A DNA stretch of 56,978 bases, counting the filler, from Sphacelaria rigidula (lineage: Eukaryota), in NCBI GenBank assembly GCA_964200075.2. It is 7 parts of 7 records of this genome, joined end to end, with 100 filler letters (N's around TTAATTAATTAA, not from the genome) between each part and the next. Parts side by side here need not be neighbours in the genome. Positions count along the whole stretch, not along the records: positions 24,464 to 32,517 come from CAXNAA020012481.1; 6 more parts are not named here. One strand, 5' to 3'. The notes under the pieces were generated by a model, which saw only the letters and a program-made list of their open reading frames with translations, was not told the origin of the DNA and did not search any database. The translations under genes and the position numbers were made by a program. This document shows, one piece after another, positions 8,056 to 48,925 of this stretch (the stretch's first letter is position 1; the number at the start of each line of letters is the position of its first letter).

Positions 8056-8155
8056 NNNNNNNNNNNNNNNNNNNNNNNNNNNNNNNNNNNNNNNNNNNNT
8101 TAATTAATTAANNNNNNNNNNNNNNNNNNNNNNNNNNNNNNNNNNNNNNNNNNNN
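8056..8155. other. Artificial contig linker
   Basis: N44-TTAATTAATTAA-N44, with stops in all six frames. Confidence 0.99.
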
Positions 8156-9353: not shown

Positions 9354-11414
9354 GTTAAGGAGCGCAAACGCTGGTACTTCGAGGTTACCCTCATCGGACA
9401 AAGCAAGGGCACGCGTGTGGGCTGGGCGCGCTTGGGCGGGGCGTTCAGCCGTGGACGCAGTGGCGAGCGCGAGGAAAACATCAACGGCATCACAGCGAAG
9501 CTCGGATCCGGTGAAGACTCGTGGGGGATATGCGGTCACCGGCAGGGCAAGAGCTACCACCAGGCAACGCGCATTCGAATGGGAAGAATCGAGGCCGCTG
9601 CCCAGATCCGCCGGGAAGAACGTAAAGAAGACACGGATGCTGAGGAAAAGAAAACGAACGACGACGAAGACGAAAAGACGGAGGGCAAAGGAGACAAAAA
9701 CGAGGGAGAAGATGACAGTTCTTCGCAGCCGCGAGAGAGCAAGGGCGTGATCGGGAGCAGCAGCGGGGGCTCCAGTGAGTCAAGCTCTAGCAGCGAGGAA
9801 CGCGCTGGTGCTACCGATGGCGGCGGTGACGGCGGCGGAGAGAGACTGGACGTGGGCGGGTCCGAAGAGGAGGACACAGCCGATTCCATTTTCCTTGCCC
9901 TTGGAGGACTATTCCGTGACAGGTCTTTTTCCGTCGACCAGGAAGGCGAAGATGGTGGGCATATAATCGAGCAGTCCACTCCAGCTCCGGCTACCCCGAT
10001 GTCCTTGCCGTCGCCAAGTTCCATGGTGGCAACGGGAGCAGTGGAGAATGACAACGCGGGAGACGGAATCCAGACGCCGTCGACGCCGCCTGCTCGCACA
10101 CTTGCCCTCCTGCCCCCCCCACCCCCCCCGCCACCGCCACCGCCACTGCCTCTGGGGCAGTCACGTGCCCTGTCCAGCATCAAAGTTCCCAGATCGCCGG
10201 TGCCGAGGTCAGTGGTGGGCAGCTCGTCACTTCGGCCATGGGGCGCGGGAACGGTGGTAGGTTGTCTTGCGGACTTTGTCAGCAAGGACGGAGACAGCGG
10301 AAGGACCGGCACGGTGAAGATGCACTTCTTTTTAAACGGCAATCCTGTAAACGGCAACGCTTCCGTGCCAATTTTCACAGCGACAGTAGCGTCCGATCGG
10401 AATAATGATTCCAATGATGATGGTGATAATGGTGATAATGGTGTGGATGCAACAGATCAGGATGACGAATGGGCGTTGTGCCCGGCCTTCAGCTGTGCTG
10501 CCGCCTCCGACGGAGTTAGCATCAATCTCGGGGAGTCTCCATTCCAATTTCCCCCGGAAGGCCTCATCGCGAAGCTAGGTTCGGCAGCATCGTCAACCAG
10601 CAGTGGCGGTGCGGGTGCCTCTGCAGGAGCGGCGGCGTCCGCAGCGGCGGGAGCTTCCCCGTCCAGCGGAAGCAGCAGAGAAAAAAGGTCGCGCTACGCC
10701 GGCTCCGGGGGAAGCGCAGACAGGGCTTCCCACCAAGTCCACGCGCGGGCGGCAGAGCGCGCACTTGAAGCGGCTTTCGGTCTTGGTCAAGAAGGAAGAT
10801 CGTCCCCTGCTAATACACATGGCGGCAGCGCGGGCGGCGGCGGCAGCGAAGACGGTGGAGACAGTTCGTCCCATGGTGCCGCAGGGTCGGGGCGCGAGAA
10901 AAGCCCGACGAGGTCCTCCGGCGAAGCGAGCGGTAGCTCTGTCGGGGGAGGCCGCGGACGCACTAAAGGGATACGCGGCGGCGTCTTCGCGGTGGGAGAT
11001 GCAGCTGTGTCGCGGTGCGTGCGTTTCGATGGTCATGGTTGGGCGGTGGCGACGCGGCCAAACCTTACCATACAGGCGTTGGACGTGTTCTTGCTGGAGG
11101 CTCTGATCCGGCCCACCGGTGGCGGCAGCGCCGCTGGCGGTGCTACTGCTACTACTTCCGGTGCTCGTGTAGGAGACAACACGGAAATGGTAGTCCTCAG
11201 CCAAACGGGGCCGTCGGGGTTCCATTTGGCGGTCGAGGGCACGAAGGCCGTGCTGCAGCTTAGCGGCTCGCCGGCTGTGGGACGAGAAGAAGCAAGCACG
11301 GGCGCTCCCCCGGGATCTAGACACTGTACTCCTGAAGGCACTCTCCCAGCGCCTGGCGCTTGGTTCAAGCTATCTGCGGCCGTCGCTCGAGACACATCCA
11401 AGGGAGTAGACCAG
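9354..11414 (+). CDS. Giant SPRY/LamG/MIB-HERC2 protein (probable HERC-like E3 ligase): exon with split SPRY domain and start of LamG
   Basis: ctag|GTT acceptor and CAG|gtcggt donor. SPRY motifs RWYFEVTL..GTRVGWA, LGSGEDSWG, WGAGTVVGCLAD, HFFLNG, LCPAFS..INLGESPFQFPP. LamG-like VRFDG, LEALIRP, GAWFKLSA. Confidence 0.85.
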
Positions 11415-11577
11415 GTCGGTTGATTGTTCCCGAACGAAACTGTGGGGACGTTCACCATGTCTGTTGGCGTAGGACAGCAGATGCGGTTTGCAGTCGCTTG
11501 ATTTTCGCGTTTCTACGGGCGCACTTTTTTGTATCAGTCCTCCACACCCGCCCATCGTATCGAATTGTCAAACGCAG

Positions 11578-11770
11578 GTCATTTTTTACGTGGATGGAGT
11601 ACCCGTGCACAAGTCTCACCTTCCCACTTGCGAGACTTTGAGGGGGGCATCAACTTCCCAGTCGCCTCAGCAGCAGCGGCAGCAGCCGTCCGGATCGATC
11701 GTGATCGGCGGGAAGCAAGCAGCGAGATCTGTAGCGCCTTCTTCGGAGACCGGGGACGACACAGAACCTC
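11578..11770 (+). CDS. Same gene, LamG exon
   Basis: cgcag|GTC acceptor and C|gtgaga donor. Encodes VIFYVDGVP...SIVIGG. Confidence 0.8.
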
Positions 11771-12273
11771 GTGAGACATGTAGCTACAGATTCTCATTCA
11801 ACCCCTTTCGTCGTTGGCGCAAGTGTACCAGGTATCATACAACCGCACGAAGTGCCTTGTGTTTTTATGCGCCCGTCTCTCATCAGCAAGTGAGATACTG
11901 CTTGAAGTTCGTATCATCTCGCCGCGCTCGGATTGCCAATCTGGGCTAATATCCCCCTGTCTTTGCATGAGTTCAGCATCAGTGTTCCTCGCAACCCGGC
12001 TTGTGATTTCGTTATTTTATCCACATGTTCCTAGCTTATCACGCTTCAAAATGGATGAAATTGTTGACACCCAGCCATGCCCTTCTCCAGCGGTAGCCTC
12101 AGTACGTCACGCCATTGTCAAACGATCTGCCGCACGTGAACTTCACGAGCATGGTGTTGACTCCCGGCAAGATTGTCGACACCACGTTTGATATTTCCAC
12201 CTCTCCGCCCCTGTTTCGACCACCTTCTGACCGCTCCCGCTGTGAACCTTCCACGGCCGACTCCGAATATCAG

Positions 12274-13250
12274 GCCCTGAGACCCCAGCGGAGCACGCCG
12301 CCGGCCTCTTCAAGGGTGACATTGCGCAAGTACGAGTGTGGTCCTCCCCTTGTTCGGATGCGTCTCTCCAGCGCATGGTCGGTCGATTGGGGGCATTGGA
12401 AGCTGACCCCACCCTCTTGTGTCTGTGGAAGTTCGATGAGGGAACCGGACCGTGCCTTCGTAATTCGCGGCCGCTTCAACCGCAAAAGGCCCCGCGGGGT
12501 TCGAAGGCAGGGACTACTGCGCCTGCCAGGGGAGCCGAGGGTCACGCCGATTTGCGAGGACAATGGTTGTGGGTCCCTTGCTTTGACCCGGACGACTACG
12601 TCGCTGGCGACTGCACCTCTACCACCCCGTCTTCCGTTTCCGTCTCTGCCGCTGATGCTGCCGTGACCGCCGCGGCCGCAAGCGGTGCGAATGAGGACGG
12701 GTCCCAGCACCGACCGGTACTCGAGTCACCGCAAAATATGTCCGTCGCAGCAGAGGATGGCTCCGCCGCCGATGGGTCAACGGTTACAGTACCCTCGCCC
12801 ACACTTGCAGCGCCCGCCGGCGGTGTTGTCGACCTCGCTCGGTCCCTCGGATGGCGATCGGTCTCCACTGCGGGGGACGAAGAGGACGACGAGGAAGGGG
12901 ACGCTTCGTATTCTGGGCGGACGGGGGATGACGACGAATCGCGCATGAAGCTTCTACCATCGTCGGCTGTCGGCGCGGGCGCTGCTGCCGCTGTCGCCGG
13001 CGCGTCGGCTGCGCTCAGCGCACGAGCCTCGATAGACGCGGCGGGTACGCGGGAGGTGTCTGCCAGGGAGGCCTTGCTCGGCGTACTAGGGAGGTTGTTC
13101 CAGCAGTGTTCCGTTTACCTGGAGCCTTGTCGAGGGGACCCGCTGGTGGAGCGAAGGCCGCCGCCGCGCTGGGCACGGCCGGAGGCGAAGGTGCAGCTGC
13201 AGCTCGTGCGGAGGGAGGAGCGAGCTCTGAAGGCGGTCGTGCAGCCCGAG
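12274..13250 (+). CDS. Same gene, end of LamG and linker
   Basis: atcag|GC phase-1 acceptor matches the preceding donor. Encodes LFKGDIAQVRVW...LLCLWKFDEGTG. GAG|gtgtgc donor. Confidence 0.82.
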
Positions 13251-13568
13251 GTGTGCTTACTGTTGTAGTGGCGGTGGCTGTTCATGTGCCATATGATAGT
13301 TTTTTTTCGCGAGCCCAAACGGTGAACATGCCGTGTGTGTTTCTTCATGTCTCTCCCACGCGGACTGTTCGGGGTTGCCTGAAACACCGCACATTGACCC
13401 GTCACATTGTCACGTTTTGCGGTGAATCCTGTGAATTTTAAACTCAGATTTCCTGCAGTCCTCTAGACTGTGCGAACGATTTGCTCGCGAGTTTTGCAGC
13501 CGTTCCCATCGCGTCTAATATTCCTGGGTGCACCGTCTCCTCCCACGTGGGTATCTTGCACTCAACAG

Positions 13569-15497
13569 ATTCGCACATATCTTCTTCTCCGAAGTGTATT
13601 GTGGCAGCTGGCGGCCATTGCCGAGGGCCTCCGGCCCGACGGGGATGACGACAGTGTTCCACCAACGCCGTCGCGAAGTAGAGGGTCAAGTTTCGGGTCT
13701 GCTAGACATTCGGCAGAAGAGAAACAGGGATCGATGCCGGCGGGCGCGGCCGGGTCGACTTGGGGTCCACGGGACCTGCTGGTCGCTGGCTTATGCACCT
13801 TACGCGTTCTCCGCGCGAACATGTACCATCTGCGGGCCGCAGGCGTGTCACCGGGCACTGTGGGGCTTGGAACCTCCAGCTCGCCCAACTACAGTTCAGG
13901 GGGGCGACGAGACCGGAGCGGGTTGGGTGCGGAGCACAAGCGGCGAGAGCGCAGTCCGTTCGCCGCCGGCCTGTTGTCGCTTCTTTTGGATTACGCTGGT
14001 GGTGTATTGGACGTGATCCCTTCCGTCAGGGGGGACGAGGACGATGAATCGATTGGCGGCGGCGGAACCTTGTTGACTGGCGCGGTGCGGCCCGTGGTAG
14101 AAGACAACGAAGAGATGAGCGCTCTGCGCAGAGCGGTGAGATACGAAGCAGCGGAGGTCGTGGGGCGTGGCCTGGATTTTTTCTTGCCTGATGCCGCAGA
14201 CAGGGTCAGTCTCTTGAGTGCGCTGCTGCGTCAGACCTGTGCGGATGATGGGGGTGGAGAAGACTGCGAGGAGACCAAGGAGGAAGAGAGACATGAAAAA
14301 TTTAGGTCGCGAGACACCCGGAGCGCATCTGCCGTGGCGGAGGCAGCGGCGATGGCTGATTCACCCTTGCCGGTAGATATGGACGAGGAGGGCTGCGGGG
14401 CCTTGTTGTCGGCGGTTTGTGGGGCCATCTGCTCGGACCCCGACCTGCTCCTTTCCCTCGTGCCAGAGGTCGTGAGGCCACCGCTCACGGTACGAGATGT
14501 ACCATCCTATGTGGCTTCTAAGCTGCGCTCAGCAGAGAAGGCTCAGGCACAGGCGCTGCAAAATCGAATGCTGAAGGAGGCCGCCTCGGCAGCGTCGTCA
14601 ACATCACCCGGAAGCGGCGGCGCAGGGGGCACCGCCCCCACAGGTTCTGCCTCACCCCGACCGGCTCCGCCTTCCCGCACACGAGGCGGGGCAGGTGGGG
14701 ATACAGACGACGCGGACGGGTTAGGATTGTGGAAAACTGGCCCAATGGCAGGTCTCCCACGAACCGGAGATGTCGTGGTGCGCGGCCCGGACTGGGTCTG
14801 GGGTGCGCAGGACGGCGAGCCGGGAGGTCGCGGACTGGTGGTGGGGTTGGCAACATGGGGTCGGGCGGCGGCGCGCCGCGGAGATGGCCGTGGACCTGCC
14901 TTATCGGGTCCTGGCGACCGCGCAGACCAGCACCAGCACCGCCAGCAACGTGGCGACAGGAACGCAGTCCGTGTGATGTGGGAAAAGGGTGCCATCAACG
15001 TGTATCGTTGGGGTGCTGTAGGACGCTCTGCGGCGTCGGTATCCTCGTCTGCAGCAGCTTGCTCTGCGAACAGCGACGATGGCCGTCGCAAGCCATGCTA
15101 CGACCTCAAGGTGCTACGAGCACCCGCCATTATCCAGGGCGAAGCGTCACGAGGCGAGGGTGGAGCTAAAGCCGCCGCTGGCGGTAGTGAAAGTGGCAAA
15201 GGAGGCGGCAAAGGAGGCAGCAAGGGTGAAAAGGGTGACAAAGGTCATCATACACCAGGCGCCGCTAGCAAGGAGCATGCTGTGCGCGGCGAGCTAAAGT
15301 GGTCTGCGGCGGATGTCGATGCTGCGCTGTTGCCGCAGGGAGACGGCGTCAAGGATAAGGGCAGTGGGCAGGGTGAGCAGAGCGGCGACACGGCCGCGCC
15401 GACCGCTCGGGAGGTGTTACGATTTATAAAAAATAACGCCCCTCAAGAATGGAGAGAGCCGCGGCGTATCACTGGCGCGGAAAACGCGCTAGTCAAG
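13569..15497 (+). CDS. Same gene, exon with MIB/HERC2 domain
   Basis: caacag|ATT acceptor (alternative at 13467) and AAG|gtgagt donor. GDVVVRGPDWVWGAQDGEPGGRGLVV...VRVMWEKGAINVYRWG...YDLKV is the Mib_herc2 signature. Confidence 0.85.
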
Positions 15498-15860
15498 GTG
15501 AGTGTGGTCTAGTTCTTGGAGGATGCGGAAACCAATCCAAACGTAGGGTTGTTGTGGTTCATGGGTATTGATTGTGAGCCGAAAAAATGAGGGTCACGTT
15601 CACGAGTTGAAATCAAGACATGGTCATTAATTAACGCATCATGCTGTAACAGTGTTTCGTTGCATGTGAGGGGCGCTGGAACGCTTCGTTGCTCTTTTAT
15701 TCGTCTGATACGCACACGCACGCACTGTGCATCGGGTGAAGAACATCTGTTGGTGGGAGCCGTGCGGCATATGCCTCTGGTATGGCCATTGAAATAGCAT
15801 CTTGATTTGATATATTTTTATGATCTGCGCACCTCAAACCACTTTTTTTGGTATGGCCAG

Positions 15861-16016
15861 CTGCACAAGCCTGAAGCTGTGGCGCGATTCTACCGGGAGT
15901 TCATCGAGCATTTCGGGAAGACTTTCATGCCACCTCCCAAGCGTGGGTCGGCAAGACGGAGATCTGCGTCACCCGAGGACCTCGTGCAACAGGAGAAGAT
16001 GCAAGAGCTTTCCACG
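15861..16016 (+). CDS. Same gene, next exon (gene continues beyond the contig)
   Basis: ggccag|CTG acceptor and ACG|gttcgt donor, phase 0. Encodes LHKPEAVARFYREFIEHFGK... Confidence 0.65.
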
Positions 16017-16209: not shown

Positions 16210-16309
16210 NNNNNNNNNNNNNNNNNNNNNNNNNNNNNNNNNNNNNNNNNNNNTTAATTAATTAANNNNNNNNNNNNNNNNNNNNNNNNNNNNNNNNNNN
16301 NNNNNNNNN
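16210..16309. other. Artificial contig linker
   Basis: N44-TTAATTAATTAA-N44. Confidence 0.99.
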
Positions 16310-24363: not shown

Positions 24364-24463
24364 NNNNNNNNNNNNNNNNNNNNNNNNNNNNNNNNNNNNN
24401 NNNNNNNTTAATTAATTAANNNNNNNNNNNNNNNNNNNNNNNNNNNNNNNNNNNNNNNNNNNN
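24364..24463. other. Artificial contig linker
   Basis: N44-TTAATTAATTAA-N44. Confidence 0.99.
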
Positions 24464-24912
24464 GTGGGGAAAGCACTGTTTTGGGCTTGAGCCTCATCTC
24501 GAAGTTAAACCTCAATTCGCACAATTTGTTGTTGTATATCTTTTCCAAATCATTCCGCGGTAGGGCTGCATATTTCTCCGAAGACATGCACTGCCGGCGC
24601 ATCCGAATGTGAACAACAAATAGTGTTAAGTATTCCTCACCTACTAACCCGTATGACCCTCGAACAATGTGCATGTTCACAAGTCCATATGATGGCTGTA
24701 GCAACCTGGGCATAGGGAACATGAAGTAAGTATATACTTACTCCAGGTGGTTCCACGGAAGGGCTGCATATTTCTACGAAGATGTGCCGTAATGGAGAAA
24801 AAATGAACAGCATTCAGGTATCCTCACCTGGTAACCTGGCCATGGTACAATGTGCATGGTCACAAGTCCGGACGTTGGCTGTAGGAACCGGGCATACGGA
24901 ACACGAAGTAAG

Positions 24913-25047
24913 GACCCGTGCGATTCGTACATATATGTCGGATGATAATCTGTATGACCCGTGTGATTCGTGCATACATGTCTGATGATAATCTGTATGA
25001 CCCGTGTGATTCGTACATATATGTCTGATGATAATCTGTATGACCCG
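24913..25047. repeat. 43-bp minisatellite, about 3.1 copies
   Basis: Unit gacccgtgtgattcgtacatatatgtctgatgataatctgtat starts at 24913, 24956, 24999 and 25042. Confidence 0.9.
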
Positions 25048-25607
25048 AGTATCCGTACATGATCTCCTTGGGCACACCTATGTTATCCGAATCAGGTCTA
25101 CACGAAACGTCAAACAAGAACCCGTGTATCCTTCTAACCCTACAAGATACCTCCCTCCTGATCGATGACATCCGGATCACGAGGACCGTTTCATGACTAG
25201 TTGAATTGTATCACCCGAATCAGGTGCACAGGTGAGTTCACACTTGAGCCGTATGACCCGCATCCTATAGAACATGATCGGTCCGACGTGTGGTACATTT
25301 TCACATGTAAGTATATGTCATGTTACTCCGTGATATCGTAAAAACAATCCGCAACAGGTGGGCGAACTACAGGTGAGGTAATCGTCGAAATTTCCACCTC
25401 CAAACTCTGCGTCAGTGAGTGTTCTGCAAGTTGATATCGCTACAAGGACAGTACCATGAACACATCACCGGCTGCCAGACTGTCGGGACGTAGGATCCGC
25501 TAGCATTGCTCCTGTCTGTACGGGGATGTTGCCCCTTGTCGGGTACGCTTTCGAGCATGATATTAAATGGAGATCATCCTTGTACATGGGCACCAACCGC
25601 TGGGGGT

Positions 25608-25655
25608 ATCACTCAAAACTTCGATTTGGAGATCACTCAAAACTTCGATTTGGAG
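25608..25655. repeat. Perfect 24-bp tandem duplication
   Basis: atcactcaaaacttcgatttggag twice. Confidence 0.9.
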
Positions 25656-26445
25656 ATGATACTAGGTGGGGAGCAGCAACCGCTGTGTGTCCAGGTGCCC
25701 CTTGGAGCAGTATGCGTTTGATTTCTGTTTGAGAAAGTTATCCCCGGAAGAACGAAATCAATGGGGGTCCTAGAGTGGGAAAATCTAGCAAAAGAAATGT
25801 CGCCAAAAAAACGGTCAGTCTAATTTTTACCCGCGGCAGAAATCAACTTCACTTGGTGGAATTGGAATGTACTCGCCACTCACGCCGAAAGGCGACTGTA
25901 AATGCCTGTCCCCCCCATCCACGATACCACGGCTACACTCTTCGCTGATCCGTCTGACACATTTGAGTCATGTGTGCACTCTGTCCAGTGTGGGGGGTTG
26001 GCAAGTGCACGCGCCACACGTTTGCTTACAGAAATGTGACACCCTCGACAAGCCGGTTGTCCCATTGGCAACGAAGGAGTCGTTCCCAGCGACACTGGAG
26101 GCCAGGGTGCTGCTACAGTACTCACAGCAAAGCAGTACCAGATGAATGAACGTTCTACACTACGCTCGACGCGTGCCAATCAATACGGCAGGCATTACAG
26201 TGTTCATACCCGCTACAACAAAAAAAAACACTTGTGCGAACTGCTTCTTCCACGAAGCGCCTAGTTCAAACCAGCATCAGAACTCCAGCGCAGGCATCAT
26301 CATGATCACCCAAGAACAGCTCTACCCTTTCGCAGCGACACGCACGAAAACCGGGGCTGCGGCGGCGCATTTGGATATACTGCCAAACTCTTCAGGCAAA
26401 ACTGGCGCTAAGCTACAGATCGGCGTGCAGCGAGCATGTCATAAA

Positions 26446-29028
26446 TCACTCCAACTCGCGTTCATGTTGATTACACTTACGCAAGGCGGAAAACGGAGCC
26501 GAAAATGCCACCTCCATCTTCATGCCTGCCTCTCTACCATGGAATACCACTGAAGAAGCATCTACAGCAGAGTCTTCTGCCCGAAGGTGTTTATGAACCC
26601 CCGACGGCGTCCTGCAAATCCGCTTCTTCATTCTTTCATCACAATTATCGCTGGAGCTACTGCCAATTCTGCTACTCCCACCATCAGAGAAGGTGGCGAC
26701 GCCAACCCTCCTTCGTAAGCTCTGCCTGGGACAATGAAAGGCTGAAGACCATTCTAATTTCACCTTCGTGTGCGGTCTTGTCCACAGAGATCCTTCTACG
26801 GTATCCTGGGCGGGCTGCGGTGGCGCGGTATGAACAAGTTCGGAACTTTTGAGTAAAACGGGGCCGAACCCGACGTCACCCGCATCACCCTTGGGACTGG
26901 TGGAATATTTGGGTTGTCCGTCTTGGGTGGAATTTTTATCGAGAATGTCTCCATGTTGCCCTCGCCCGGTTGCTTGAGATACGGCATGTTGCCATACGTT
27001 AATCTGTTCGACACCATCAACGCGGTACACACACCGATTCGAACAACTTTCGCGGCCGCACTTCTTCCTCACTATATTGACCATCCCCACTCTCGCGTGA
27101 TCGGCACAAAACTCCGCCTTCTGATTATCCGCTACACCGTACGATGGGTCCTTGGAGCAGCCCTCGTCGCTGCACTTCTTGCTCGCTACATTGATCATCC
27201 CTGCCCTGGCGTGACCGGCACAAAACTCCGCCCTCCGGCTTCCAGCTAAACCGTACGATGGTTGTTTGGAGCAGCTATCGTTGCCGCGCTTCTTGCTCAC
27301 AACATTGACCATCCCTGCCCTGGCGTGACCGGCGCAGAACTCCGCCCTCCGGCTTCCCGCTCCACCGTACGATGGTTTCTTGGAGCAGCCCTCCCTGCCG
27401 CACTTCTTGCTCGCTACATTAACCATCCCTGCCCTGGCGTGACCGGCACAGAACTGCGCCCTGCGGCTTCCAGCTACACCGTACGATGGTTGTTTGGAGC
27501 AGCTATTGTTGCTGCACTTCTTGCTCGCAACATGAACCATCCCCGCTCTTGCGTGACCGGCACAGAAATCCGGCTTCCGACTTCCCGCAACACCGTAAGA
27601 TGATCTCTTGGAGCAGCCCTCGTTGCCGCACGTCTTGCTCACTACGTTGACCATATCCACCCTGGCGTGATCGGCACAGAACTGCGCCCTCCGACTTCCC
27701 GCTACACCGTACGATGGTTGTTTCGAGCAGCCCTCATTGCCGCACTTCCTGTTTTTCACATTGACCATCCCAGCTCTGGCGTGACCGGCACAGAACTCCA
27801 CCCTCCGGCTTCCCGCTACACCGTACGATGGTTCCTTGGAGCAGCCCTCGTTGCCGCACGTCTTGCTCACTATTTTGACCATCTCCACCCTGGCGTGATC
27901 GACACAGAACTGGGCCCTCCGGCTTCCCGCTACACCGTACGATGGGGTCTTGGAGCAGCCCTCGTTGCCGCACTTTTTGCTCGCTACATCAGCCATCCCT
28001 GCCCTGGCGTGACCGGCACAGAACTGCGCCCTCCGACTTCCCACTACACCGTACGATGGTTTCTTGGAGCAGCCCTCGTTGCCGCATCTCTTGCTCGCCA
28101 CGTCAACCATCCCTACCCTGGCGTGATCGGCACAGAATTTCGCCTTCCGACTACCCGCTACACCGTAATATGATCTCTTGGAGCAGCCCTCGTTGCCGCA
28201 TCTCTTGCTTACTACATTGACCATCCCTGCCCTGGCGTGATCGGCACAGAACTCCGCACTCCGACTTCCCACTACACCATACGATGGGTGCTTAGAGCAG
28301 CCTTCGTTGCCGCACTTCTTGCTCGCAACATCAATCATCCCTACCCTGGCGTGATCGGCACAAAATTCCGCTTTCCGACTACCTGCTACACCGTACGATG
28401 GTTGTTTGGAGCAGCCCTCATTGCCGCACTTCCTGCTTTTCACATTGACCATCCCTGCTCTGGCGTGACCGGCACAGAACACCGCCTTCCGACTTCCCGC
28501 TACACCGTACGATGCATGTTTGGCGCAGCTCGTGTTACCACAGCTCTTGCTCGCTACATCGACCATTCCTGCCCGGGCGTGACTGGCACAGAACTCTGCC
28601 TTCCGACTTCCTGCTACACCGTATGATGATTGTTTGGAGCAGCCCTCGATCCCGCACGTCTTGCTCTTTACATTGATCATCCCTGCCTTGGCATGACCAA
28701 CACAGAACTCCGCCTTCCGGCTTCCCACTACACCGTACGATGGATACTTGGCGCAGCTCTTGTTACCGCATCTCTTGCTCGCTACATCTCTCATCCCTGC
28801 CCTGGCATGACTGGCACAGAACTCCGCCCTCCGGCTTCCCGCTAAACCGTACGATGGTTTCTTGGAGCAGCCCTTGTTACCGCATTTCTTGTTCGTTACA
28901 TTGACCATCCCTGCCCTGGCGTGGCCGGCACAGAACTCCGCCTTCCGGCTTCCCGCTACACCGTACGATGGGTTTTTGGAGCAGCCCTCGTTACCGCACT
29001 TCTTGTTCACTACATCGACCATCGCCAC
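26446..29028 (-). CDS. EsV-1-7 cysteine-rich repeat protein with 17 full 38-aa repeats (first ATG at 29022)
   Basis: Uninterrupted 860-aa ORF. Consensus KKCGNEGCSKxPSYGVAGSRKAEFCAGHARAGMVNVAS (C-x4-C-x16-C-x2-H), 114-bp period over 27067-29004. Matches the EsV-1-7 repeat known from Ectocarpus virus 1 and the Ectocarpus IMM protein family. Confidence 0.9.
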   Translation of the reverse strand: MAMVDVVNKKCGNEGCSKNPSYGVAGSRKAEFCAGHARAGMVNVTNKKCGNKGCSKKPSYGLAGSRRAEFCASHARAGMRDVASKRCGNKSCAKYPSYGVVGSRKAEFCVGHAKAGMINVKSKTCGIEGCSKQSSYGVAGSRKAEFCASHARAGMVDVASKSCGNTSCAKHASYGVAGSRKAVFCAGHARAGMVNVKSRKCGNEGCSKQPSYGVAGSRKAEFCADHARVGMIDVASKKCGNEGCSKHPSYGVVGSRSAEFCADHARAGMVNVVSKRCGNEGCSKRSYYGVAGSRKAKFCADHARVGMVDVASKRCGNEGCSKKPSYGVVGSRRAQFCAGHARAGMADVASKKCGNEGCSKTPSYGVAGSRRAQFCVDHARVEMVKIVSKTCGNEGCSKEPSYGVAGSRRVEFCAGHARAGMVNVKNRKCGNEGCSKQPSYGVAGSRRAQFCADHARVDMVNVVSKTCGNEGCSKRSSYGVAGSRKPDFCAGHARAGMVHVASKKCSNNSCSKQPSYGVAGSRRAQFCAGHARAGMVNVASKKCGREGCSKKPSYGGAGSRRAEFCAGHARAGMVNVVSKKRGNDSCSKQPSYGLAGSRRAEFCAGHARAGMINVASKKCSDEGCSKDPSYGVADNQKAEFCADHARVGMVNIVRKKCGRESCSNRCVYRVDGVEQINVWQHAVSQATGRGQHGDILDKNSTQDGQPKYSTSPKGDAGDVGFGPVLLKSSELVHTAPPQPAQDTVEGSLWTRPHTKVKLEWSSAFHCPRQSLRRRVGVATFSDGGSSRIGSSSSDNCDERMKKRICRTPSGVHKHLRAEDSAVDASSVVFHGREAGMKMEVAFSAPFSALRKCNQHERELE

Positions 29029-29231
29029 CCTGGTGTGATCGGCACAGGACTACGCCAACCGGCTTCCCGCTACACCGTACGATGGGTTTTGGACCAGCCC
29101 TCGTCGCCGCACTTCTTGTTGGTCACATTCACTATCTCCACCCTGGTGTGATCGGCACAGAATTCCACTTTCCGACTCCTCGCTGAACCGCACGATGGTT
29201 GCTTGGACCAGCCCTCGTTGCCGCACCCCTT
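29005..29231 (-). pseudogene. Two decayed EsV-1-7 repeat units upstream of the intact array
   Basis: Second Cys is Trp in both units. 1-bp deletion near 29087-29090 (that unit is 113 bp) and TAG at 29052-29050. Confidence 0.85.
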
Positions 29232-30329
29232 CGTCACTTCACTGACCATCCCAACCCTGTTCACCGGCACCTCAACGAGGTTGACGACCGTCGCGCTATC
29301 TCGCGAGACTTTCAAGCAGCCCTCCGGGCGCGCTGCCAAGCTAGCATCGCCATGTCGGCAAAACGAGAGGCTCTAGCGCACTCAATATCGGCTGCTTCTG
29401 GCAGTTCCACTGGAAAACGGCCGAACAAGGGGGGCAGGCTGTCCCTCCTGACGCTGCCTGAGAAACATTAACGGGTTCAAAAGTCGAGTCACAGATTCTC
29501 AATGTGGCATACAGTACTTCGAGACAAATGCTTAGTACGGGCCTTCACTATGTGATAGAACGGGGTAGGCAGATCGACAGATTTTGGTTTTTGTGACCTC
29601 AGCATTTTGTTCATGATGTTATACATGTCGTGGCATTTGATGTTTTATTCCATCACATAGACCACTCTTATTCTTGCTTTCGTTCGAGTGACTGAGACTG
29701 ACTGCAATCCTGTTTGATTGGTTGCTCCCACGCGGATGACGTAGTGTTACATGTCCTTGTTAACAGTGACAACACCGTGGGCGTGCGATCAGTGCTTCTG
29801 CTGCCATACTGCAAAAGCGTTTCTCCACAGACAGCACCCTCCCAACCTCCCCTCCTTATGCTCCCAACTTGCCCTCGGACTGTACAACATGGTGAGTAGG
29901 AGCCACACCCTACACGGGTCGCTGAGGTTTTTGATACATGTCAATACTTTGCATCGTGGACCGCACCCATTCGGGTCTTGACGTGTGCTTTAGTTGGGAG
30001 TTCCGAGGCCGTAACGGACGTTGGGTTCATGTTGGCATGTGTTGGACACGAGGTTGCCGTCTGAGCAACATATTTCAACATGTACTTCCCCCGCTGGCTG
30101 TGAATACCGGTACATATCGAGTCGGCAGAATAACATACGTCGAGCACAAACAATGCAACGGATGTTACTGCATAGATTGACCTGTGCCCAGGGCGCTTCC
30201 CATTTAAAATCATTGGGTGTTTGTGACCTTAGTCTTGGATTGCGGCGATGAAGCCGGAGTGATCTAGGCTGGGCCCTTGCTAGTAGTGGCTCTGGAATGA
30301 AGGTCTGCCGCACGCACTCGGGGTATGGT

Positions 30330-30745
30330 GATATAACACAGGATCTTGCGAATTGGGGATGAGAAATCCGGAGAAATACAATCTTCATTTCCGCACCTAA
30401 TATTCGAAATATGGTTCTATTTCTTCACCTACTAGTAGCTATTGACAACTGCTGCACGCCATAGAAGTTTGGATTTCGATCACCGAAATGTTGGAGTCCG
30501 TTCGGACACCCGAAATTCCCCAAAATTGGGTTCTCACCTAGGACTCCAACATTTCGGTGATTGAAATCCAAATTTCTATGGCGTGTAGCACTTGTCAATA
30601 GCTATCAGTAGGTGAAGAAATGGAACCATATTTGAACATTTGGTGGGGGGAAGAAAAATAACTCCGGGCTTCTTATCCCCAATGAAAGATTTATCCCCCC
30701 AATGAAAGATTTATCCCCAATTTGTAAGACCCCGTGTTGTATGTC
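30330..30745 (+). ncRNA. Long foldback hairpin: candidate miRNA/hpRNA precursor or foldback element
   Basis: Arms 30406-30499 and 30541-30633 pair with 7 mismatches around a 41-nt loop. Weaker pairing extends outwards. The hairpin is certain; the RNA function is inferred. Confidence 0.4.
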
Positions 30746-30947
30746 GTTGCACGGATGCGAAAAGTTGTATTGAAGCATATATCGTATTCGTGTTATCGCC
30801 GTCACCCTACATTCGCAAGGGCCTGCCGCAAGCCGGCCCTGAAACGCGAGCTGGCCCCGAAACGCAAGCCGTTCCCTGGCAAATTCCCGCCTGGTCGTCC
30901 CGGACTAGTCTCAGCCACTTTTCTTCAATTTTCAGATTTTTTTTATC

Positions 30948-31255
30948 GTCGCACTTTGAACCCCTCCCCTTCCTCGGGACGAGTCCGTGGTCTCAAGGGA
31001 TCAACCTATCTCTCCCCGGTACACGCCTTGCATTTTGGTCTTGCGGATTGATTGAGTCATGATTATCAGCACTCCCGCACCGCGTCAACTCACGTCAAAC
31101 GAACTCAGTCAAACGCATTTTGTTTACTCACGTTCGTATGCTTTCCACGGCGGAAATAAGATACAACAAGAAAACCCACCGCATCGGGAACCGAACCCTC
31201 GTTTTCTCCACACTAACGGCGACCGTCGGACCATTACACCACCGGGGCGCGGCGA
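30948..31255 (-). mobile_element. tRNA-derived SINE family B, near full length
   Basis: Minus-strand A box TGGTGTAATGG and B box GGTTCGGTTCC. The head matches 24210-24363 and the 3' part matches 48480-48630. Confidence 0.75.
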
Positions 31256-31474
31256 CAATACCATGCCTGTCGTCAAGTACACGCTCGGAACTTGTTTTGC
31301 GGTGTGCCACAGGCTGTATGTTTCTAACTGCTGTTTCTTGGGCAGACAGGAGACAACGTCAAGCTTCAAGCAGCTGCACGCTGGGCCTAGGGACCCGATA
31401 TCGGAAAATTACGGTATCACCTTCAACATTCTGGTGGTCATTATTTCTTTCATACATCACAGAAGAATCTTCTA

Positions 31475-32060
31475 CATCTATCTCCGAGTATAGCCATCGT
31501 TTTCTCCCTACTGTCTAATGCATCAAACTATTTCATGCTACCTTCGTTCACTTTCCGCGTTTCCCTCTCTAGTACGTCCAGTTCCTCCTTGTATTTAGTT
31601 CACATGCTGCCACTATATGACCTATCTTCTCTATTCCTTTGCCATAGAGGCAGTTCTGTCCATCTACTTCCTCCTCCACACGACGACTGGTAAATCTCTT
31701 CCTCTTTTCTGGCAGGTCCAGGTCCCCCACCCGAGATCGCAGTTTCATATTTTTCGCAGCGTGCATTGGGCCATGCAAATATGCTTTCATCCCTATCCCC
31801 CTCTCTCAACCACCCGTATATCTCCAGGTATTCTTCCTTGTCTACTTTGCATCTGAGCGCTCCTTCCTGTCTGTAACTTTTGCCTTGTACCCTGCGTCTT
31901 CACCTATGAACAGTATTTCGTCTCGGTTTCCTCCTATCTCCTTCCATATTTTCTCGACCTCTTGATCCCACCTTATTCCAGCATTTTCTATCGTAGTTTT
32001 GGTCCATACAGCCCTATCAAGTATAGCTGGCAATCTCATTTTCTGCATGTTATTCACGCT
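31475..32060 (-). mobile_element. Degenerate non-LTR retrotransposon (LINE) ORF2 C-terminal fragment
   Basis: Frameshifted peptides RLPAILDRAVW..GIRWDQEVEKIWKEIGG, GMKAYLHGPM..KLRSRVGDLDLPE, C.yG..IE..HIVAACE (decayed CCHC) and LDSREKTMAILGDR. These resemble the LINE C-terminal zinc-knuckle region. Confidence 0.7.
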
Positions 32061-32063
32061 ATA

Positions 32064-32517
32064 CAGGCTGGGCCGCCTAAGACGCGGGCAGGGATGTGAA
32101 CACGCGATTTAACAGCTGAGTTTCAGGTTGTTTTCTGTGAAATTTTGACACGATGTACAGGATATATGTGCCAAGACGCCACTTTCCCCCCCATATATTT
32201 TTCATGACTTGTCGACGCTTTTGCAGTAGAAAAAATGTTACGAAATCCAGATCACCAAAAGCATACGAGGAAGGAAAAAAGAAGAGGAGGCAAACGGTAG
32301 GGGCTTCACATATACCCCATGTATACGGCGTCAAAATTTCATGGAAAACAAGTTCAAATTGAGCAGTGAAATCGCGTTTTTCTGCCCAGAACCGGTTCAC
32401 TTGCTCTTCGAGTACAAAAACTTCAGCTGGAACTTTGACGTTTTCTACAAGCGCGACGCCTTGGCGCGCTGGAGGTCTCGTCTGCGTGCCATTTAAGACA
32501 CTGCGCGCCTACCGTAC
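32064..32517. mobile_element. MITE with TA-CAGGCTGGGCC terminus, cut by the contig end
   Basis: Same terminus as at 8467. Internal inverted blocks at 32125-32170 and 32310-32360. Homologous to 1290-1450. Confidence 0.6.
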
Positions 32518-32617
32518 NNNNNNNNNNNNNNNNNNNNNNNNNNNNNNNNNNNNNNNNNNNNTTAATTAATTAANNNNNNNNNNNNNNNNNNNNNNNNNNN
32601 NNNNNNNNNNNNNNNNN
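32518..32617. other. Artificial contig linker
   Basis: N44-TTAATTAATTAA-N44. Confidence 0.99.
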
Positions 32618-33590: not shown

Positions 33591-33679
33591 ACTGGCCGGC
33601 AGGTTTTAGGGCCCCCTTGGTTGGTTCGGGGGTGTGGTTTTGCGGNNNNNNNNNNATAATGTGGGTTTGTGAGAATGGT

Positions 33680-40671: not shown

Positions 40672-40771
40672 NNNNNNNNNNNNNNNNNNNNNNNNNNNNN
40701 NNNNNNNNNNNNNNNTTAATTAATTAANNNNNNNNNNNNNNNNNNNNNNNNNNNNNNNNNNNNNNNNNNNN
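40672..40771. other. Artificial contig linker
   Basis: N44-TTAATTAATTAA-N44. Confidence 0.99.
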
Positions 40772-48825: not shown

Positions 48826-48925
48826 NNNNNNNNNNNNNNNNNNNNNNNNNNNNNNNNNNNNNNNNNNNNTTAATTAATTAANNNNNNNNNNNNNNNNNNN
48901 NNNNNNNNNNNNNNNNNNNNNNNNN
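48826..48925. other. Artificial contig linker
   Basis: N44-TTAATTAATTAA-N44. Confidence 0.99.

Follow-up and report, generated by a model that had tools for sequence, protein, structure and literature searches.

The fingers of PRDM9- and KRAB-ZFP-type C2H2 arrays are minisatellite-like, with a conserved scaffold and a few diversifying positions that set DNA specificity; the repeats of transcription activator-like effectors (TALEs) are metal-free helical hairpins of 33-35 amino acids (aa) with a di-residue at positions 12/13. The EsV-1-7 family is characterized in published descriptions as the largest orthogroup across brown algal genomes, as including the developmental regulator IMM, and as built on a domain of unknown function and likely viral origin. 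One preprint adds that the family is greatly expanded and tandemly arrayed in brown algae, that it may be a new zinc-finger class, and that IMM (Ectocarpus IMMEDIATE UPRIGHT) has five EsV-1-7 repeats (bioRxiv 10.1101/2024.02.19.579948). Here we analyze a 17-unit EsV-1-7 array in a 56,978-nucleotide (nt) stretch of the brown alga Sphacelaria rigidula (GenBank assembly GCA_964200075.2). This stretch, called the window below, consists of seven parts of seven records joined end to end; the array lies in the part taken from CAXNAA020012481.1 (positions 24,464 to 32,517), and all coordinates are those of the window. One residue of each otherwise conserved unit has diversified faster than silent sites, and we tentatively suggest that the array may be a modular nucleic-acid binder, most likely of DNA, in which this residue would be the unit-specific contact.

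The array and its diversified codon

A long open frame on the minus strand (26446-29022; ATG at 29022-29020, TGA at 26448-26446) comprises 858 codons and encodes 17 EsV-1-7 units, a partial unit, and a 188-aa tail; counted from a GTG, the open reading frame (ORF) at 26446-29028 is 860 aa long, with its first ATG at 29022, and the frame is free of stops for 2.58 kb. Tandem Repeats Finder reports 1 tandem array at 27055-29259 (period 114, 19.4 copies, 81% matches, 0 indels), and the Pfam profile PF19114 (EsV_1_7_cys) matches the protein in 17 stretches at 793.1 bits against a gathering score of 25 (E = 1.5e-245), so that the family assignment made in a preliminary description of this DNA is upheld by profile search. 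The 17 tandem 114-bp (38-aa) Cys3His units, as delimited by Tandem Repeats Finder, Pfam, and our unit table, occupy 27076-29013 on the minus strand, from u1 (29013-28900) to u17 (27189-27076); these are the same 1938 nt as described previously, in a register offset by 9 nt from the earlier 27067-29004. We number each unit from five residues before its first Cys, which makes the ligands C6, C11, C28, and H31; a column number is the earlier position plus 3, and the earlier position 11 becomes column 14. The spacing C-x4-C-x16-C-x2-H with all four ligands, earlier ascribed to each module, is found in 16 of the 17 units, the exception being unit 16 where Arg (CGC) replaces the first Cys (C6). Nine residues are invariant in 17/17 units (C11, K13, Y17, G18, F27, C28, H31, A32, and M36), including every one previously listed as such (K10, Y14, G15, F24, C25, H28, A29, and M33 in the former numbering, K13 to M36 in ours). 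The scaffold is indeed strongly basic, with 111 K+R against 42 D+E over 649 aa, an isoelectric point of 9.7, and a net charge of +69 (+76 for the whole protein). Unit-to-unit DNA identity is 71-91%. A single exon carries this EsV-1-7 family (PF19114) gene for a very basic protein, and its units are products of tandem duplication from one another.

Column 14 comes directly after the C-x4-C knuckle, in the context C-S-K-x-P. The 17 codons for it lie on the minus strand between 27148 and 28974, one per unit at the unit start minus 39 to 41, beginning with 28974-28972 (AAC) in u1 and stepping 114 nt lower per unit to 27150-27148 (GAC) in u17. The string read previously at this site (N, K, Y, Q, H, Q, H, R, K, T, E, Q, R, Q, K, Q, D) is exactly what we find, as is the codon set given with it: 9 distinct residues, all polar, from 10 codons, with an entropy of 2.89 bits over the 17 units. 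The next most variable columns are 2, 26, 5, and 38 (1.71, 1.66, 1.57, and 1.45 bits), of which 2, 5, and 38 bear out the secondary variation earlier placed at the unit junction. In the DNA, diversity over the 114 nucleotide columns of the unit peaks at the first base of codon 14 (pi 0.644), followed by the second base of codon 2 (0.602) and the second base of codon 5 (0.567). Over all 136 unit pairs the Nei-Gojobori (NG86) proportions of synonymous and nonsynonymous differences are pS 0.335 and pN 0.137, giving a pN/pS of about 0.4; by column, pN is 0.54 at column 14 and 0.49 at column 2. Fourfold sites differ by 0.227 on average (Jukes-Cantor distance 0.27), and the Jukes-Cantor distances at the first, second, and third bases of codon 14 are 1.82, 0.42, and 0.97. 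The units are kept under purifying selection except at this one codon per unit, and column 14 has diversified several-fold faster than fourfold silent sites, only to the polar residues Q, K, H, R, N, Y, T, E, and D; the residues remain polar because the middle base of the codon is mostly A (14 of 17).

Neutral codon evolution was simulated with stops barred on a maximum-likelihood unit tree, which the simulation takes into account, with 10,000 runs for each setting. At the fourfold distance of 0.27 the runs gave 3.6-3.9 residues on average and 9 or more in 0.01-0.05% of cases; at the NG86 synonymous distance (dS) of 0.444 they gave 9 or more in 0.36-0.76%; and 9 residues drawn entirely from the observed polar set arose in at most 0.01% of runs at every setting. 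Three of four sister-unit pairs have the same column-14 residue, and the five Gln units share a common AAA-CAA haplotype and all fall in one clade; it follows that substitutions after duplication produced the diversity. The earlier remark that Arg at this site is always followed by Ser is true of both units concerned (2/2), but these units, u8 and u13, are sisters in the unit tree, and Ser also follows Gln in u4; we therefore ascribe the pairing to shared descent rather than co-variation.

At 27946-27949 (codons 13-14 of unit 10), a base change and a one-base gap set one contig of the DNA-like metagenome run X9 apart from the window; it could represent a paralogue or a strain variant.

An AlphaFold2 model of five units (u6-u10, 133-row alignment) has a predicted local distance difference test score (pLDDT) of 93.4 and a predicted template-modelling score (pTM) of 0.63. 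Its secondary structure includes short strands (columns 17-19 and 36-38) and a helix of three residues (29-31), with no helix of 4 or more. Just ahead of the first strand, the conserved K13, P15, and Y/F17 are interleaved with columns 12, 14, and 16, an arrangement that would fit an extended segment with one exposed face. The invariant ligands and the confident model together suggest that the Cys3His set binds zinc. A wide structural comparison of this model (VIA) yields 9 chains at Z >= 2, the best being RING domains at Z 3.1.

Relatives, fusion partners, and variable columns

Searching 5.8 billion proteins for homologues returned 151 relatives at E <= 1e-5, and 120 of them enter the analyses below. 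The closest named relatives among the matches listed come from S. rigidula itself (64% identity over 32% of the query); further ones belong to other brown algae, green algae, and Nannochloropsis, and many are unnamed metagenome proteins. A pattern demanding all four ligands, which makes the ligand columns invariant by construction, extracted 570 units from 109 of the 120 relatives. The step from unit to unit is 38 aa in 348 instances, and by a regular-expression count no relative among the 120 has more than 11 units, compared with 17 here.

The repeats are followed by a C-terminal domain of about 200 aa in 71 of the 120 relatives. It carries the motif RPD...E-x-DE-x-x-H...R-x-NP, and R373, P374, D375, E388, D390, E391, H394, R422, N424, and P425 (P0113 numbering) are invariant in the alignment of all 71 domains. 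No Pfam family covers it: the 71 proteins consistently match EsV_1_7_cys only, except for a weak DUF2726 match in 1/71. The AlphaFold2 model of P0113 (pLDDT 91.5) found weak Foldseek matches to SfsA (the best, E = 3.6e-3), AF1548 (probability 0.97), Hjc, and PspGI. When residues 335-480 were compared by VIA, the Vsr endonuclease came out at Z 7.9 (1cw0_A; 135 residues aligned, root-mean-square deviation 4.6) and Z 7.8 (1vsr), values that are middling, that derive from a predicted model, and that may reflect common arrangements, which tells against building too much on them; other matches include Can2, archaeal Hjc resolvases, McrC, and several restriction enzymes, and 48 of 997 chains reach Z >= 5. 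Because the list of matches falls almost uniformly within the nuclease superfamily and the acidic motif is invariant, the modelled domain is likely to be a PD-(D/E)xK-type nuclease. A scan of IMG/VR with the domain alignment gave at least 598 pattern matches and at least 541 confirmed viral-contig loci, of which 80 were kept; many of these array-nuclease loci are on GVMAG giant-virus contigs, with several copies in some metagenome-assembled genomes (L006, L014, and L015 in one). By their sequences, the giant-virus proteins could be homing-type or defence nucleases.

Other partners point in the same direction. Pfam places a Resolvase (serine-recombinase) domain in P0092 (32.4 bits, cut-off 23.3) and helicase-associated HA domains in P0062 and P0065, and a published study describes an Ectocarpus Tc1/mariner transposase with an N-terminal EsV-1-7 domain (PMC12477816). 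Such repeated joining of arrays to DNA-cutting and DNA-recombining enzymes would be best explained if the arrays were DNA-binding modules, and DNA binding by the window array is, on this comparison of sequences, plausible. Two further relatives, P0040 and P0041, match the plant Zf_WRKY19 profile (49 bits in P0040), a possible sign that the motif has a cousin in land plants.

In the 73 relatives with at least 5 units, within-array entropy is on average highest at column 14 (1.91 bits, followed by columns 3, 2, and 16 at 1.83, 1.80, and 1.75), but paired tests do not separate it from columns 3, 2, and 16 (p = 0.24, 0.29, and 0.052). Among the 34 arrays with a unit identity of 50% or more, it is top or tied-top in 9; splitting ties gives it the top place in 6.7 of the 73 arrays, against 8.1 for column 16. 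One relative, P0004, echoes the window pattern (KRHWAR; 2.25 vs 1.46 bits), and several close relatives have column-14 strings of low diversity (KKKHK in P0007, RHRRRL in P0016, RRGGGGLGG in P0012, and KKQQQC in P0011). These family entropies and undiversified relatives make the single hypervariable residue per module a trait of this array (2.89 vs 1.71 bits), echoed in a few relatives, and not the rule for the family.

The viral loci, a sample that probably overlaps the metagenome relatives and so is not fully independent of them, yielded a nuclease-motif frame in 79 of the 80 kept and 71 distinct arrays, 59 with at least 5 units. In these 59 arrays columns 16, 14, and 3 stand at 1.77, 1.71, and 1.70 bits, with the next at 1.25, and together they supply the top column in 30.8 of the 59. 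Columns 3, 14, and 16 combine freely, giving 227 triplets among 482 distinct viral units; they are not among the top pairs by mutual information in the viral units, where the leading pairs (12/20, 19/20, and 5/12) mark unit subtypes. The viral column-14 alphabet is narrow (R 161, Q 121, and I 85 of 489 units).

Comparison of array with array gives two pictures. Over 7 independent pairs of arrays with the same spacing (49 unit comparisons), column 14 differs in 17/49, and columns 8 and 33 differ in 28 and 27; in the four of these pairs that keep unit order, chosen after inspection of the strings, columns 14, 16, and 3 each keep the same residue in 23 of 27 units, and column 8 does so in 13 of 27. 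Coccomyxa P0094 and Botryococcus P0107 have the same column-14 string, WHYQQRC. Across 26 independent pairs at 65-98% BLAST identity (24 informative, 133 aligned units), column 14 is the least conserved of all (0.43 identical), followed by column 30 (0.45) and columns 16 and 34 (0.47). What chiefly tells units apart is column 14, which some diverged pairs preserve and many viral paralogues change fast; this behaviour suggests, without proving, that it is a specificity residue.

Weighing the readings

In the mechanism that we propose, each module would fold round one zinc ion; the array would be a modular nucleic-acid binder, most likely of DNA, with backbone contacts from the invariant basic residues K4/5, K13, R23, K24, and R33; column 14 would contact the target in each unit, and the 17-residue string would help define the target recognized; across the family, recognition would fall to columns 3, 14, and 16, joined by 2 and 12, and of these only column 14 would have diversified in the window array; and the proteins of brown algae would derive from the array-nuclease proteins common in giant viruses, having no nuclease and perhaps a regulatory role. 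We consider nucleic-acid binding with column 14 as the unit-specific contact to be quite possible, though well short of assured. Since several columns vary per module, a C2H2/PRDM9-type contact set is a likelier model than a single TALE di-residue.

A number of results weigh against this nucleic-acid-binding mechanism. Pfam finds no nuclease, recombinase, or other known domain in the window protein, and neither the RPD...E-x-DE-x-x-H...R-x-NP motif nor homology to the nuclease domain was found in its tail; the partners seen in relatives tell us what such arrays can be attached to, not the role of this one. The Protein Data Bank has 0 matches at E <= 10 to five units searched by sequence and 0 to an alignment profile, and Foldseek returned nothing at E <= 0.001 for the five-unit model (best E = 1.4); as modelled, the module resembles no solved structure and a fold assignment is impossible. 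Column 14 is hydrophobic, Gly, Pro, or Cys in 175 of the 570 family units, which adds to its statistical inseparability from other columns and to the undiversified strings of close relatives, and its low conservation between paralogues could stem from unit shuffling rather than retargeting. The neutral test depends on a tree built from 114 nt and on an assumed neutral rate, gene conversion among units is likely, and at a distance of 0.8 the simulated probability of 9 or more residues rises to 0.06-0.11; a local mutation hotspot at column 14 may be an alternative. Finally, translation of the long frame is not assured, because its 5' end is decayed and 4-5 ATGs lie upstream.

The 5' region deserves description in its own right. 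Two to three decayed EsV-1-7 units precede the ATG (29023-29340, minus strand; the Tandem Repeats Finder array extends over them to 29259), with Trp at the C11 position in two, one frameshift, and one in-frame stop. The leader contains upstream ATGs at 29468, 29353, 29347, 29249, and 29128, and a 59-codon upstream ORF (29249-29070) composed of decayed units; the long frame takes its start Met from a decayed unit, where it occupies the invariant position M36. Erosion of the array seems to proceed from the 5' end, and the invariant Met of each unit is a ready in-frame restart. Nine public runs, none on record as RNA, contain at least half of the sampled words of the stretch. Contigs of three runs that we guess to be RNA have a depth of 68-170 over the unique parts of 26350-29385, 30 at 25682-26013, and 2.6-5.75 at 29471-30381; a DNA-like run has a flat depth of 18-34 across the regions compared between 25682 and 30381. 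As a hint only, given that the RNA nature of the runs is guessed, these depths would fit transcription across roughly 25.7-29.4 kb, decayed units included, with no splice-like joints and a start apparently between 29385 and 29470.

Four other explanations must be set against nucleic-acid recognition through column 14. The array might be a protein-binding or other non-nucleic-acid zinc scaffold whose column 14 is driven by host-virus conflict, as a decoy, sensor, or target: diversifying selection confined to polar residues is typical of arms-race interfaces, the EsV-1-7 family is common to brown algae and Nucleocytoviricota, including phaeoviruses (according to the literature), the best structural neighbours, though weak, are RING domains, which bind proteins, and the tail is fast-evolving and has no homologue. 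We take this to be unlikely, though deserving of serious weight; a net charge of +69 over 649 aa better suits a polyanion ligand, the relatives' arrays are joined to DNA-acting enzymes, and no partner protein is known. If column 14 were no more than a loop residue exposed to solvent and free of constraint, or a small mutational hotspot, its diversity would carry no information and there would be no code; this would account for the hydrophobic, Gly, Pro, and Cys residues found there in relatives, for its inseparability from columns 2, 3, and 16, for its being the column that changes most between close relatives, and for a diversity that by itself is not significant at an assumed neutral distance of 0.8. 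The measured silent distances are, however, 0.27 (fourfold) to 0.44 (NG86), and these give 9 residues in at most 0.8% of runs; the polar-only outcome, with A as middle base in 14/17 codons, requires a selective filter (joint P <= 0.0001); and unit-specific residues are kept in some diverged pairs as other surface columns drift. An unconstrained column 14 thus strikes us as rather improbable.

The pattern might also be a relic of past selection only, in a 5'-eroded, decaying, or non-translated EsV-1-7 copy. The adjoining upstream units with their Cys-to-Trp changes, frameshift, and stop fit such a history, as do the start at M36 of a decayed unit behind five upstream ATGs and the missing first Cys of unit 16; yet a stop-free frame of 2.58 kb with a pN/pS of about 0.4 among units is unlike an old pseudogene, 26 of the 120 relatives likewise start within 9 residues of the first Cys, and the depth of 68-170 over the gene in the presumed RNA runs is a hint of expression, so that we judge a decaying copy improbable. 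Strictest of all would be a TALE-like code in which each module, by residue 14 (with 15) and nothing else, would read a single base or a fixed step, predictably and in a form open to swapping. The single strongly variable position per unit in the window array and the narrow column-14 alphabet of the viral arrays (R, Q, and I foremost) are what such a code might produce, and Q/N, K/R/H, E/D, and T/Y are residue types that commonly contact bases. But at least three columns are important together family-wide, the modelled modules are not helical TALE-type repeats, a step of one bp per 38-aa zinc module would be unlikely, and no target is known; a strict code of this kind is highly improbable.

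Surroundings and comparison with known systems

Downstream of u17 the gene continues with a partial 18th unit (IVRKKCGRESCSNRCVYRVDG; 27013-27075, minus strand) in which the first two Cys remain and the C-x2-H half is missing, and then with the C-terminal tail (26449-27012, minus strand). The tail matches no Pfam family, and none of 1185 candidates of 473-1505 aa contains a homologue of residues 650-860; by its sequence it appears to evolve fast. It has psi-K-x-E motifs at 26763-26752 (VKLE) and 26523-26512 (MKME), which match the SUMO consensus. One or two such motifs occur in 14 of 17 brown-algal-type tails, in contexts such as G-M-K-V-E-V and N-V-K-L-E-L-G, and they recur in tails that are otherwise unalignable (P0002, P0004, P0007, P0010, P0029, and others).

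Some candidate features of the array itself were set aside. Plus-strand ORFs over the array (for example 27667-28173) are by-products of the repeat, antisense to the Pfam-matched frame, and a Pfam DUF1490 match (54.9 bits, 0 stretches) is read as compositional because it falls under the cut-off when two units are the query. PHROG matches are only to families of unknown function. The rest of the window holds no other EsV-1-7 unit, a single chance match to the pattern being interrupted by a stop. The gene is flanked on both sides, at 24500-24766 and 30374-32242, by sequence whose contig depth ranges from thousands to hundreds of thousands in all four runs compared, marking high-copy repeats, probably transposable elements. 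Elsewhere in the window, a block at 10000-16000 has about 60% G+C, compared with 45-53% outside it, and contains long open frames including one at 13470-15512 (plus strand); a MIB_HERC2 domain (40.6 bits) occurs in one long frame of this block and the others have no Pfam match. Paired runs of 44 N, 12 bases apart, recur every 8154 bases (8056-8155, 16210-16309, 24364-24463, 32518-32617, 40672-40771, and 48826-48925) and look like an artefact of masking, assembly, or processing, not biology; three runs of 10 N are found at 33646, 39762, and 47195.

Within the EsV-1-7 family, the window array shares the 38-aa C-x4-C-x16-C-x2-H repeat and has brown-algal proteins as its nearest relatives; it differs in having 17 unusually homogeneous units and one strongly diversified residue. 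A search that did not take in the founding paper or any supplementary files found no published statement on variable positions, a code, or a nuclease partner for EsV-1-7 repeats.

The SBP domain invites comparison, its first zinc site presumably having the same C-x4-C-x16-C-x2-H spacing as the EsV-1-7 units. Pfam gives a weak match to SBP (PF03110; profile positions 1-35/36 of 75, 28.0 bits vs a cut-off of 27 with the whole protein as query and 16.1 bits with two units), but the window units match the first half only, 0 stretches pass on their own, and they lack both the second zinc site and the basic C-terminal part; sequence and fold searches with EsV-1-7 units brought up no SBP structure. 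The giant-virus relatives recall the modular nucleases (homing endonucleases, and engineered zinc-finger nucleases or TALE nucleases) in that an array is followed by a predicted Vsr/Hjc-like domain; the window protein differs in having no nuclease domain.

Taken to its furthest, our proposal would make EsV-1-7 arrays an unrecognized class of modular, evolvable DNA-recognition arrays with a contact set at columns 3/14/16, serving viruses as aimed nucleases, recombinases, and transposases and brown algae as nuclease-less, fast-retargeting regulators, a synthesis that we regard as unlikely in its entirety. If true, the window array, with nearly all its variation at one position, would be the simplest natural read-out of the code; giant viruses would possess natural "zinc-finger nucleases", several per genome; the expansion of the family would be explained as retargeting, like that of KRAB-ZFPs; and a new programmable scaffold would be at hand. 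If not, a known repeat family has simply gained another ordinary member. Seventeen near-identical modules with selection on essentially one residue are nonetheless a clean natural experiment on the function of the family, and with the nuclease, recombinase, and transposase fusions that function becomes testable as sequence-specific DNA binding through columns 3, 14, and 16.

With TAL effector repeats, the model first invoked for this locus, the window array has in common its near-identical tandem units with one sharply variable site each. It differs in that the modules are Cys3His and 38 aa long, and related arrays vary at three or more columns; no TAL effector family is among the Pfam matches of the window protein, and the only helices assigned to the model by DSSP are 3 residues long. 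Because the modules are Cys/His-based and almost helix-free in the model, the TALE analogy fails on fold. The likeness to C2H2/PRDM9 arrays would be one of working, by analogy: a conserved scaffold with a diversifying contact position. Ligand spacing, fold, and the 38-aa unit length set the window array apart from them, as does the lack of a KRAB or SET partner. There is no zf-C2H2 hit to the window protein in Pfam, the C-x2-4-C-x12-H-x3-5-H spacing does not occur, and the model has no beta-beta-alpha helix. By analogy, then, the nearest counterpart in mechanism would be an array of the C2H2/PRDM9 type rather than a TALE; in fold it would be neither.

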